DNA of 64,000 nucleotides from assembly GCF_045037415.1 (NCBI RefSeq), contig NZ_CP173438.1; one strand, given 5' to 3'. The notes beneath the pieces were generated by a model that made no database searches, had not been told where the DNA came from, and worked only from the letters and a program-made list of their open reading frames with translations. Source of the stretch: Escherichia coli. Its GTDB lineage: Bacteria > Pseudomonadota > Gammaproteobacteria > Enterobacterales > Enterobacteriaceae. Each line of letters starts with the position of its first letter. Positions within the stretch are counted from its first letter, which is position 1. The position numbers and the translations under genes are program-made. This document shows, in pieces, positions 3,651 to 55,425 of this stretch.

Positions 3651-5933
3651 ATGTCCGAGCTTAATGAAAAGTTAGCCACAGCCTGGGAAGGTTTTACCAA
3701 AGGTGACTGGCAGAATGAAGTAAACGTCCGTGACTTCATTCAGAAAAACTACACTCCGTACGAGGGTGACGAGTCCTTCCTGGCTGGCGCTACTGAAGCG
3801 ACCACCACCCTGTGGGACAAAGTAATGGAAGGCGTTAAACTGGAAAACCGCACTCACGCGCCAGTTGACTTTGACACCGCTGTTGCTTCCACCATCACCT
3901 CTCACGACGCTGGTTACATCAACAAGCAGCTTGAGAAAATCGTTGGTCTGCAGACTGAAGCTCCGCTGAAACGTGCTCTTATCCCGTTCGGTGGTATCAA
4001 AATGATCGAAGGTTCCTGCAAAGCGTACAACCGCGAACTGGACCCGATGATCAAAAAAATCTTCACTGAATACCGTAAAACTCACAACCAGGGCGTGTTC
4101 GACGTTTACACTCCGGACATCCTGCGTTGCCGTAAATCCGGTGTTCTGACCGGTCTGCCAGATGCTTATGGCCGTGGTCGTATCATCGGTGACTACCGTC
4201 GCGTTGCACTGTACGGTATCGACTACCTGATGAAAGACAAACTTGCACAGTTCACCTCTCTGCAGGCTGATCTGGAAAACGGCGTAAACCTGGAACAGAC
4301 TATCCGTCTGCGCGAAGAAATCGCTGAACAGCACCGCGCTCTGGGTCAGATGAAAGAAATGGCTGCGAAATACGGCTACGACATCTCTGGTCCGGCTACT
4401 AACGCTCAGGAAGCTATCCAGTGGACTTACTTCGGCTACCTGGCTGCTGTTAAGTCTCAGAACGGTGCTGCAATGTCCTTCGGTCGTACCTCCACCTTCC
4501 TGGATGTGTACATCGAACGTGACCTGAAAGCTGGCAAGATCACCGAACAAGAAGCGCAGGAAATGGTTGACCACCTGGTCATGAAACTGCGTATGGTTCG
4601 CTTCCTGCGTACTCCGGAATACGATGAACTGTTCTCTGGCGACCCGATCTGGGCAACCGAATCTATCGGTGGTATGGGCCTCGACGGTCGTACCCTGGTT
4701 ACCAAAAACAGCTTCCGTTTCCTGAACACCCTGTACACCATGGGTCCGTCTCCGGAACCGAACATGACCATTCTGTGGTCTGAAAAACTGCCGCTGAACT
4801 TCAAGAAATTCGCCGCTAAAGTGTCCATCGACACCTCTTCTCTGCAGTATGAGAACGATGACCTGATGCGTCCGGACTTCAACAACGATGACTACGCTAT
4901 TGCTTGCTGCGTAAGCCCGATGATCGTTGGTAAACAAATGCAGTTCTTCGGTGCGCGTGCAAACCTGGCGAAAACCATGCTGTACGCAATCAACGGTGGC
5001 GTTGACGAAAAACTGAAAATGCAGGTTGGTCCGAAATCTGAGCCGATCAAAGGCGATGTCCTGAACTATGATGAAGTGATGGAGCGCATGGATCACTTCA
5101 TGGACTGGCTGGCTAAACAGTACATCACTGCACTGAACATCATCCACTACATGCACGACAAGTACAGCTACGAAGCCTCTCTGATGGCGCTGCACGACCG
5201 TGACGTTATCCGCACCATGGCGTGTGGTATCGCTGGTCTGTCCGTTGCTGCTGACTCCCTGTCTGCAATCAAATATGCGAAAGTTAAACCGATTCGTGAT
5301 GAAGACGGTCTGGCTATCGACTTCGAAATCGAAGGCGAATACCCGCAGTTTGGTAACAACGATCCGCGTGTAGATGACCTGGCTGTTGACCTGGTAGAAC
5401 GTTTCATGAAGAAAATTCAGAAACTGCACACCTACCGTGACGCTATCCCGACTCAGTCTGTTCTGACCATCACTTCTAACGTTGTGTATGGTAAGAAAAC
5501 TGGTAACACCCCAGACGGTCGTCGTGCTGGCGCGCCGTTCGGACCGGGTGCTAACCCGATGCACGGTCGTGACCAGAAAGGTGCTGTAGCGTCTCTGACT
5601 TCCGTTGCTAAACTGCCGTTTGCTTACGCTAAAGATGGTATCTCCTACACCTTCTCTATCGTTCCGAACGCACTGGGTAAAGACGACGAAGTTCGTAAGA
5701 CCAACCTGGCTGGTCTGATGGATGGTTACTTCCACCACGAAGCATCCATCGAAGGTGGTCAGCACCTGAACGTTAACGTGATGAACCGTGAAATGCTGCT
5801 CGACGCGATGGAAAACCCGGAAAAATATCCGCAGCTGACCATCCGTGTATCTGGCTACGCAGTACGTTTCAACTCGCTGACTAAAGAACAGCAGCAGGAC
5901 GTTATTACTCGTACCTTCACTCAATCTATGTAA
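3651..5933 (+). CDS. pflB: Pyruvate formate-lyase (formate C-acetyltransferase)
   Basis: 760-aa ORF; glycyl-radical region RVSGYAVRF near the C-terminus; RBS aagaaggtagg upstream. Confidence 0.95.
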
Positions 5934-5975
5934 TTAGATTTGACTGAAATCGTACAGTAAAAAGCGTACAATAAA

Positions 5976-6001
5976 GGCTCCACGAAAGTGGGGCCTTTTT
6001 T
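5976..6001 (+). terminator. Intrinsic terminator downstream of pflB
   Basis: ggctccac-gaaa-gtggggcc stem-loop followed by a T run. Confidence 0.55.
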
Positions 6002-6124
6002 AGCACGAGAGCCTTTTTTGTCAGCTATCTATACTTTAAGGTGACTGCCAAAACAGACTCGACGTAGCCTTCGAGCTGCGCACCAACACGGCCTCAGATG
6101 GGCCACATCTGGAGAAACACCGCA

Positions 6125-6865
6125 ATGTCAGTTATTGGTCGCATTCACTCCTTTGAATCCTGTGGAACCGTAGACGGCCCGGGTATTCGCTTTATCACCT
6201 TTTTCCAGGGCTGCCTGATGCGCTGCCTGTATTGTCATAACCGCGACACCTGGGATACGCATGGCGGTAAAGAAGTTACCGTTGAAGATTTGATGAAGGA
6301 AGTGGTGACCTATCGCCACTTTATGAACGCTTCCGGCGGCGGCGTTACCGCATCCGGCGGTGAGGCAATCCTACAAGCTGAGTTTGTTCGTGACTGGTTC
6401 CGCGCCTGCAAAAAAGAAGGCATTCATACCTGTCTGGACACCAACGGTTTTGTTCGTCGTTACGATCCGGTGATTGATGAACTGCTGGAGGTAACCGACC
6501 TGGTAATGCTCGATCTCAAACAGATGAACGACGAGATCCACCAAAATCTGGTTGGAGTTTCCAACCACCGCACGCTGGAGTTCGCTAAATATCTGGCGAA
6601 CAAAAATGTGAAGGTGTGGATCCGCTATGTTGTTGTCCCAGGCTGGTCTGACGATGACGATTCAGCGCATCGCCTTGGTGAATTTACCCGTGATATGGGC
6701 AACGTTGAGAAAATCGAGCTCCTCCCCTACCACGAACTGGGCAAACACAAATGGGTGGCAATGGGTGAAGAATACAAACTCGATGGTGTTAAACCACCGA
6801 AGAAAGAGACCATGGAACGCGTGAAAGGCATTCTTGAGCAGTACGGTCATAAGGTCATGTTCTAA
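6125..6865 (+). CDS. pflA: Pyruvate formate-lyase activating enzyme (radical SAM)
   Basis: ORF 6098..6865; start at ATG 6125 ([23 protein letters not shown]...); CxxxCxxC motif CLYCHNRD. Confidence 0.9.
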
Positions 6866-6877
6866 TTTCCCCGTAAA

Positions 6878-6907
6878 GCGGCAACTTTATTGAGTTGCCG
6901 CTTTTTT
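6878..6907 (+). terminator. Intrinsic terminator of pflA
   Basis: gcggcaact-ttattg-agttgccgc hairpin followed by tttttt. Confidence 0.6.
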
Positions 6908-6911
6908 GTGC

Positions 6912-6952
6912 ACAGAAAAGCAGAGTGTGAAACAGTAAGTTCACACTCTGCT
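6912..6952 (-). terminator. Hairpin terminator of ycaD, facing the pflA terminator
   Basis: 13-bp inverted repeat agcagagtgtgaa / ttcacactctgct with a T run on the minus strand. Confidence 0.5.
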
Positions 6953-6961
6953 TGAATTCAT

Positions 6962-8110
6962 TTACACGTGAGCCACGGGTTTCGGCGTATGGCCGGCGTT
7001 GCGAAGCAGCATCAGCAAATAGATAAACGATACGCTGGCGATCATGATAAACAATAAATTATCGGAGAAATTCTGCATTAGCATAGCGGTAAATGACGGG
7101 CCAAGCAGGCTTCCCACGGTATAGCTCAACAGTAAGGCCTGGTTCATCGCCACCAGTTGATGATGTTCAACTTTCTCACAAGCCCAGGCCATCGCCACCG
7201 GATATAGCGTAAAGCCAGCGGCACCGAGGATGAATAACGCTGGGGCCATCGCCGCCTGGCTAAGCATCGCAATACTGCCGAGAATGACGACAAAGACCTG
7301 AACACGCAACACCAGCAGTCGACCAAACTTATCCGCCAGACGTCCAATCGGCCATTGTCCGAGGATACCCGCACTGACCAGTACCGCCATCCAGAAACCA
7401 ATGCTGGCATTGCTCACCCCTTTGTGATTGAGGTACAGCGGCATCAGGCCATATAGAGATCCCAGCACGATTCCTGAGATAATGCAGCCATTCACGCCAA
7501 GCCGCGCCTGACGGAGTTTTAGCATTGACGTAATTGACGTCGAATCATGGTTTTCAGTCTGCTGATTCAGGACACGCGTAAACAACAGCGGTAAGATTCC
7601 TGCCAACGTCAAACCTGTAACCCACGGCAATACACTCATCAACTCGGTTGAGACTTTGCTGACCAGTAACTGGCCTAAAAACGTTCCGACGTAATAAACC
7701 ATCATATACGCAGCAAGCAACCGCCCGCGGTTACGCGACGTCCCACTGCACATCAGCGCACTCTCAACAACCACCCAAATCATGGCACAGCCGATGCCAG
7801 CGACAAAACGCCACGCCAACCAACTCCAGAATCCAATCATCAGGCCAAGGCCGGCACAGCCAGCGGCAAAAATGAAGGAGGCCAGATAATAGCTGCGGTT
7901 AAAGCCAATGCGTTTAATGACATACCCTGTCAGCAATGTACCGACAAGGTTGCCGGTAAAATAGGATGAGCTGACAACGCCTACCTGCCATGTAGACATG
8001 TGTTCCTGGGCGAGCCAAAGCGGCACGAGTGTATTTAACACCGCGATCGCCAGAGTCAACAAAAGCAGGCCAGACAGCAAAAGCATGACAGGCCGGGTAT
8101 ACGTGGACAT
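6962..8110 (-). CDS. ycaD: MFS transporter YcaD
   Basis: 382-aa polytopic membrane protein [37 protein letters not shown]..., matching recalled YcaD. Confidence 0.85.
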
Positions 8111-8423
8111 GAATTAAAACCGTGAGGAAGTTCAAATTTCATGCGCATCATGCCACCGCCAAAAACATTGTCAATGGGTGAAAATACGCGCATATCGCAG
8201 CGGCGGTATTATCGATTTATATTACTCATTCATAACGCTAATGCTGAAGAGACGATTAATCTCATCTGATTGTTTTTATTGATCTAACACAAATTTCATA
8301 CGCTTCGTTCAGTCGAAAAATTTCATGGTCACAGCAAACTCATATTTCCCGTCTATGCTTTCAGAGCAATGCATCGCGTCTGACCGATTTAGACGTACCA
8401 CTGACTCTCGAAAGGAGAAGAGG

Positions 8424-13219: not shown

Positions 13220-13239
13220 AAAGCGCCCGCAGGCGCTTT
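13220..13239. repeat. attL core (20-bp direct repeat aaagcgcccgcaggcgcttt)
   Basis: Exact copy of the sequence at 51877..51896; contains the gcgcccgcaggcgc terminator palindrome. Confidence 0.8.
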
Positions 13240-51876: not shown

Positions 51877-51896
51877 AAAGCGCCCGCAGGCGCTTT
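51877..51896. repeat. attR core (20-bp direct repeat), also the serS terminator
   Basis: Exact copy of 13220..13239; lies about 22 bp downstream of the serS stop. Confidence 0.8.
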
Positions 51897-55267: not shown

Positions 55268-55425
55268 CATTATTCCTCAAATTACGTCACTCCCGACCGG
55301 GAGCTCCCTCTACTCTCTATTCCAGGCTAATAATCAGCTTGAGGAAAGAAGAAAATACTGAATTTTCAGTTACCAGATTGCCGGATGCGACGCTACCGCG
55401 CCTTATCCGGCCTACGATGCATTAA

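Follow-up and report, generated by a model that had tools for sequence, protein, structure and literature searches.

IS200 is a 707-bp insertion sequence whose left end carries a terminator hairpin at nt 12-34 (PMC4513863), and a strong excess of terminator-like sequences has been reported immediately upstream of IS200/IS605-family elements (bioRxiv 10.1101/2025.07.22.666184). The locus described here shares with this family and with IS-adjacent deletions a terminal IS fragment that abuts a deletion of neighbouring genes, at a site 3' of an intrinsic terminator. In the annotation of Escherichia coli K-12 MG1655, the genes concerned follow one another as dmsC, ycaC, ycaD (b0898), ycaM (b0899), ycaN (b0900), ycaK (b0901) and pflA (b0902), and the preliminary description of the locus, which gave the same order from ycaD to pflA, was right in this respect. 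According to Pfam searches with the K-12 proteins, YcaM is an APC-family amino-acid permease, YcaN a LysR-type regulator and YcaK a Flavodoxin_2 protein, an NAD(P)H oxidoreductase of the flavodoxin-like fold. The window, by which we mean the whole 64,000-nt stretch of E. coli DNA that was analysed, is without all three genes.

Both neighbours of the missing segment are intact in the window (Table 1). PflA is 100% identical to WP_000111043.1 of SK1144, O157:H7, Nissle and others, and in an identical genome the coding sequence is annotated at 6125-6865; the mechanically called pflA reading frame opens at an ATG at 6098, 27 nt upstream of the start at 6125 that RefSeq and K-12 both give. Between the pflA stop codon, whose last base is 6865, and the ycaD stop codon, which starts at 6962, the reading frames and the annotation agree on the distance of 96 bp that had been stated beforehand. 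Within this spacer lie two perfect inverted repeats. As G+C-rich hairpins that run directly into a U-tract shortly past a stop codon, they have the form expected if pflA and ycaD each end in an intrinsic terminator, the two being convergent. The first begins 10 nt past the pflA stop codon and folds on the plus strand at -20.3 kcal/mol (z -5.2), followed by UUUUUU, and the second begins 8 nt past the ycaD stop codon and folds on the minus strand at -22.1 kcal/mol (z -4.6), followed by UUUUCU; in neither case was any of 200 shuffled sequences as stable. Folding was used in place of a promoter/terminator consensus scan, which flagged one hairpin only, in an unhelpful orientation, and whose stem extension, being greedy, takes in some of the T-tract bases. 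Promoter-like sites were not detected in the spacer by that scan, and Rfam gave no match near thresholds across 6600-7200.

Table 1. Features of the pflA/ycaD region, with positions in the 64-kb window.
Feature	Position	Strand	Description
pflA (pyruvate formate-lyase activating enzyme)	6125..6865	+	Intact, 246 aa
pflA/ycaD spacer	6866..6961		96 bp
pflA intrinsic terminator (predicted)	6875..6907	+	12-13 bp stem, perfect 12-bp arms 6875-6886/6893-6904; T6 run 6902-6907
Assigned IS200C left-end remnant	6908..6919	+	GTGCACAGAAAA, first 12 nt of the element, left terminus up to the left-end hairpin
ycaD intrinsic terminator (predicted)	6914..6953	-	14-bp stem, perfect arms 6918-6931/6940-6953; then TTTTCT on the minus strand
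ycaD (MFS transporter)	6962..8110	-	Intact, 382 aa; Pfam MFS_1, E 1.4e-40

The spacer had been described as two face-to-face hairpins only. The hairpins stand, but they are separated by 12 nt that match the terminus of IS200C. The sequence of the pflA terminator is the same in the K-12, O157-type and window-type alleles and its T-tract is unchanged in the window, whereas the ycaD T-tract is shorter in the window allele (TTTTCT, against TTTTTTGTTT in K-12). At 6900-6921 the pflA T-run and the A-run on the ycaD side are complementary around the palindrome GTGCAC (GCTTTTTTGTG/CACAGAAAAGC, 10/11 positions), which produces a small third hairpin when the whole spacer is folded.

Alignment of window positions 5900-8400 with the K-12 locus yields two collinear BLAST blocks, one of 98.7% and one of 97.4% identity. 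MG1655 (b0898-b0902) and the window agree, in collinear order and with 97-99% identity, in pflA with its terminator and in ycaD with its hairpin, and pflA and ycaD are not adjacent in K-12. The blocks break between window positions 6907 and 6912, and opposite 6908-6911 K-12 has 3,228 bp (NC_000913.3 947070-950297). The proposal that the strain is without a segment of roughly 3 kb is therefore borne out by the alignment, with about 3.2 kb absent, and neither BLAST nor alignment found homologous DNA of the K-12 ycaK-ycaN-ycaM segment between window 6907 and 6920. No direct repeats or target-site duplications were found at the ends of the 3,228-bp segment, which leaves an excision of the integrase or transposon type unsupported. 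Measured from the end of the pflA T-run to the first base of the ycaD hairpin, the distance is 3,236 nt in K-12, where it holds ycaK, ycaN and ycaM, 2,476 nt in TB06052, 1,765 nt in O157:H7, 1,764 nt in E. albertii and 12 nt in the window. Both terminator hairpins are kept in all five.

A census of 5,426 complete E. coli genomes reveals three alleles of the locus, where the preliminary description had framed two states; the loss relative to K-12 holds, the dichotomy does not. DNA of the K-12 segment is present in 4,377 genomes, in 3,316 of them as the full ycaK-ycaN-ycaM segment and in 1,061 as the ycaM half only. One specific junction, found in 1,024 genomes, including O157:H7, O145 and others, joins ycaM to a 111-bp piece of the 3' end of ycaN that carries a pseudogene annotation, and this partial allele is also seen in E. 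albertii. It shares with the window the left boundary past the pflA T-run and the ycaD terminator but, unlike the window, keeps ycaM and the ycaN fragment within its 1,765 nt between T-run and hairpin; the window ycaD is 99.0% identical to that of this type, compared with 98.1% to that of K-12-like genomes. In the third allele, that of the window, pflA and ycaD are contiguous (1,048 genomes; 1,029 match the 48-nt junction itself). This form makes up about a fifth of the complete genomes, and together with the 4,377 it accounts for 5,425 of the 5,426.

Window-type strains that can be recognised by name are EC958 and other O25b:H4-ST131 strains, Nissle 1917, LF82, O127:H6 E2348/69 and ExPEC XM, all of which belong to phylogroup B2; the link to B2 thus rests on strain names and not on phylotyping of the 1,029-1,048 genomes. 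The 48-nt junction is 100% identical in EC958, O25b:H4-ST131 and SK1144 and differs by one substitution, within the pflA hairpin, in Nissle 1917, LF82 and E2348/69. Nissle 1917 and E2348/69 likewise agree with the window over the 115 nt surrounding the junction, except for one substitution each within that hairpin. Since ST131-type strains, Nissle and E2348/69 share both scar and junction, the comparison points to one deletion event in B2, ancestral to these deep lineages. An assembly or sequencing artefact that collapsed the region is ruled out as the source of the junction, which recurs in 1,029-1,048 independently finished genomes, reference strains included. In our judgement the window allele is very likely a deletion specific to the B2 lineage and as such ordinary accessory gene-content variation.

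The remainder of the window offers several further observations. Relative to SK1144, it carries a 38.6-kb insertion at 13240-51876, between dmsA and serS. A 20-bp direct repeat, AAAGCGCCCGCAGGCGCTTT, stands at either end of it (13220-13239 and 51877-51896) and is in its own right a terminator-like hairpin. The insertion is a P2-family (P88-like) prophage; over its first 22.3 kb it shows 100% identity with a phage recorded from E. coli O25b:H4-ST131, 'Escherichia phage Entero_P88_NC_026014(23)'. Taken with the pflA/ycaD junction, which is 100% identical to that of ST131, this prophage indicates that the window probably derives from ST131 or a close relative. In the lolA-ftsK intergenic region, at about 55394-55397 of the window, SK1144 has the IS3-family element IS1397 (about 1.4 kb), which the window is without; apart from this element, the two differ by one mismatch over 25 kb of shared sequence.

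The direction of the change was assessed in outgroups obtained from a PflA scan with one genome per species and typed by tblastn with the K-12 proteins; the 80 loci, which are those among the matches listed, form a sample without Salmonella, E. fergusonii and the cryptic Escherichia clades. In 44 of the 80 loci listed, from Yersinia, Serratia, Erwinia, Pantoea, Rahnella, Kosakonia and many Enterobacter among others, pflA and ycaD are convergent direct neighbours with 32-231 bp between them. In nine, ycaM lies between them (E. albertii with 97% amino-acid identity, several Citrobacter with 93-94%, Kluyvera and a Pluralibacter MAG), 20 have other cargo of 0.7-5.6 kb by pflA, and seven have no ycaD within reach of pflA. 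Conversely, ycaN or ycaK was found at the pflA/ycaD site by tblastn in none of the 80 loci listed.

The prevalence of direct adjacency, together with the G+C content of the K-12 segment (45.4%, compared with about 50-52% in its flanks), is what would be seen if B2 had simply kept the ancestral arrangement, never having had ycaM, ycaN or ycaK, and other E. coli lineages had gained them. However, ycaM occupies the same place in all E. coli that are not of the B2 type and, with 89-97% amino-acid identity, in E. albertii, several Citrobacter and Kluyvera, so that a primary absence would require either that B2 lies outside E. albertii or that the gene was gained repeatedly at the same position. It is further opposed by the window flanks, which match other E. 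coli at 98-99% identity as far as the two hairpins, and by the foreign IS200C bases at the junction, which are evidence of rearrangement; we consider it highly improbable. Because ycaM is found at the same site in the other E. coli, E. albertii, Citrobacter and Kluyvera, and because of the IS200C scar, these sequence comparisons favour a loss in the lineage of the window over a gain in K-12. The preliminary description had left both options standing, and the second would hold only on a much deeper timescale, that of the 44 adjacent loci. As direct adjacency is the commonest state in other Enterobacterales, B2 would have returned secondarily to the old order rather than retained it.

The partial allele supplies a relative date for the other two genes. 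The architecture of E. albertii is of the O157 type, with homology to K-12 resuming in the 3' end of ycaN (position 3732 of the K-12 reverse complement; 3729 in O157), and the final 36 residues of YcaN can still be read from a translation of the O157 fragment. Since a fragment of a gene cannot be older than the gene itself, complete ycaN, along with ycaK, must predate the remnant in O157 and E. albertii. The most parsimonious history would begin with an ancestral adjacency of pflA and ycaD, followed by the gain of ycaM in the Escherichia/Citrobacter neighbourhood and of ycaN-ycaK in Escherichia; a 1.5-kb deletion would then have given rise to the ycaN-remnant allele, and a separate, complete loss would have taken place in B2.

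The ycaK/ycaN deletion allele common to O157:H7-type E. coli (L003:2947-3113) and E. albertii NBRC 107761 (L004:8782-8950) consists of the 111-bp ycaN remnant and about 40 nt of unmatched filler. On its sequence, such sharing would imply either an old polymorphism or recombination at the locus between species or lineages. Unrelated cargo, 0.7-5.8 kb in length, occupies the pflA/ycaD spacer in 23 of the 80 species listed, 20 of them without ycaM and three with ycaM as well; loci with cargo downstream of pflA include L005, L008, L009, L014, L019, L026, L041, L050 and L051. This distribution suggests that the convergent spacer is a recurrent insertion hotspot across Enterobacterales.

The manner of the loss in B2 appears to be recorded at the junction, which reads ...GCCGCTTTTTT / GTGCACAGAAAA / GCAGAGTGTGAA..., with nt 1-12 of IS200C joined straight to the ycaD hairpin. 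In all other alleles, this hairpin is preceded by ACAAAAAA. The last four A of the scar are common to the A-run before the hairpin in those alleles, which would place the deletion crossover within 6916-6919; eight of the 12 bases are unambiguously those of IS200C, and the AAAA could equally be native. TB06052, which was hit by the ycaN-remnant probe as well as by the first 32 nt of the B2 junction probe, has a 711-bp IS200C exactly past the pflA T-run (...GCCGCTTTTTT / GTGCACAGAAAACCCCCAGCTAGGCTGGGGG...GGATATTTATT / ATTCCGCGCT...), and PCN033 carries the same insertion behind the pflA terminator. The allele of these two genomes is the same as that of the window from pflA through TTTTTT / GTGCACAGAAAA; unlike the window, which has IS nt 1-12 only, it continues with the full 711-bp IS200C, the ycaN remnant and ycaM. 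A BLAST search with the 711-bp element found no match in the window, where the left-end hairpin (CCCCCAGCTAGGCTGGGGG), tnpA and the right-end hairpin are absent, and no IS200 copy in the window or the other loci compared. By its sequence, therefore, 6908-6919 is a scar of IS200C and not an element. A scar of IS200C at this site was not met in the limited literature searched, and no claim is made that it is unpublished.

Three more IS200C copies, one behind lom in an EC958 prophage and the others in the galU-hns and rph-pyrE intervals, begin with GTGCACAGAAAA followed by the left-end hairpin, each directly past a terminator hairpin and T-run. Four independent copies thus begin as T-run / GTGCACAGAAAA / CCCCCAGCTAGGCTGGGGG. 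With regard to target choice, all four contexts, those of pflA, lom, galU and rph, place the element directly past a Rho-independent terminator hairpin and its T-run (L086:1772-2482; L087, L088, L090), and many further copies align from the terminator stem or T-run (query positions 14-26), upstream of the IS terminus (position 31). This fits both the published structure of IS200 and the excess of terminators described for its family. About half of the complete E. coli genomes carry IS200C, at a median of two and up to 35 places per genome.

The scar was also read on the minus strand, as an IS behind the ycaD terminator, and this reading was rejected on its 11/12 matches and the broken T-run TTTTCT; the plus-strand reading has 12/12 matches and lies at the same site as the intact IS200C copies. 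Short filler sequences occur at deletion junctions, and GTGCACAG(AAAA) might in principle be chance filler left by illegitimate recombination, with no IS involved, in a spacer where the palindrome GTGCAC and the complementary T-run and A-run of the two terminators would suit such an event. Such an origin is very hard to reconcile, however, with the agreement of 12/12 bases (8/8 of the unambiguous ones) with the IS200C terminus, as the 12-mer GTGCACAGAAAA occurs once in the 64-kb window and 0.03 times would be expected by chance. Moreover, the match begins at the exact nucleotide that opens the intact IS200C of two genomes, and it does so in the terminator-proximal setting that other copies share. 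We hold chance filler to be most improbable.

The best explanation, and one we think very probable, is that IS200C was inserted in the B2 ancestor and that the rest of the element was subsequently deleted along with the genes. The pflA/ycaD spacer of the Escherichia ancestor would have held ycaM and, for some time, ycaN-ycaK too. In the B2 ancestor, IS200C would have been inserted immediately 3' of the pflA terminator T-run, the kind of target that it prefers, and a deletion would then have joined nt 12 of the element to the A-run that borders the ycaD hairpin. From the microhomology at the ends of the deletion, which comprises AAAA and 7/8 positions over ACAGAAAA/ACAAAAAA, with each copy adjoining the base of a hairpin, we infer that slippage during replication or illegitimate recombination across the 4-nt AAAA was the most likely route. 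Along with the remainder of the IS, the deletion would have taken out ycaM and whichever of the ycaN remnant and ycaN-ycaK was present, amounting to 2,464 nt from a precursor like TB06052/PCN033 or 3,935 nt from K-12 plus the IS. What remained would be two intact convergent intrinsic terminators 12 nt apart, with pflA and ycaD undamaged and three genes gone.

Canonical excision of IS200/IS605 elements by TnpA reseals the flanks precisely. The 12 IS nucleotides retained here differ from such an outcome, and the deletion was therefore probably mediated by the host through microhomology rather than by the transposase. The scar in itself indicates that IS200C was present and was mostly removed, and is silent on how much flanking DNA was lost with it; two or more events, in which the ycaM region was lost earlier and independently and a later IS200C insertion suffered an internal deletion that left 12 nt, would produce the same junction. 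This requires at least one additional event, and nothing is left of the 1,765-3,236 nt by which T-run and ycaD hairpin are separated in other alleles, while the right breakpoint falls exactly on the A-run that adjoins the hairpin. As a single deletion starting within the IS explains both, the order of insertion and single deletion is the one we infer, and we regard a multi-event course as unlikely. Among the genomes searched, none showed an intermediate form, for instance a partial IS200C behind the pflA terminator, and the insertions in TB06052 and PCN033 may have arisen recently and independently instead of surviving from the precursor.

Because IS200C lands directly behind intrinsic terminators, the process could be more general. 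Tentatively, and with rather more doubt than confidence, microhomology deletions starting from the A-rich 12-nt left linker of IS200C might repeatedly prune cargo from convergent spacers, the B2 junction being a fossil of one such event. If so, solo scars of T-run plus GTGCACAGAAAA would be present elsewhere in Enterobacteriaceae genomes. At the locus itself, termination towards pflA could be less efficient owing to the shorter T-tract of ycaD (TTTTCT).

The absence of ycaK-ycaN-ycaM from B2 is already visible in every annotated B2 genome, and what is added here is modest: the direction of the change as a loss in B2, a scar that records the manner of this loss, and a spacer that recurrently takes up cargo. 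Deletion of ycaN in K-12 has been reported to change the expression of ycaC, ycaD and focA and to cause a formate-utilisation phenotype (PMC9068703); its passages on ycaM, ycaN and ycaK deal with YcaN function, without mention of the deletion in B2. B2 strains such as ST131, ST73, ST95 and similar ones are without the YcaN regulator, and regulatory maps of this neighbourhood established in K-12 therefore need not hold in B2.
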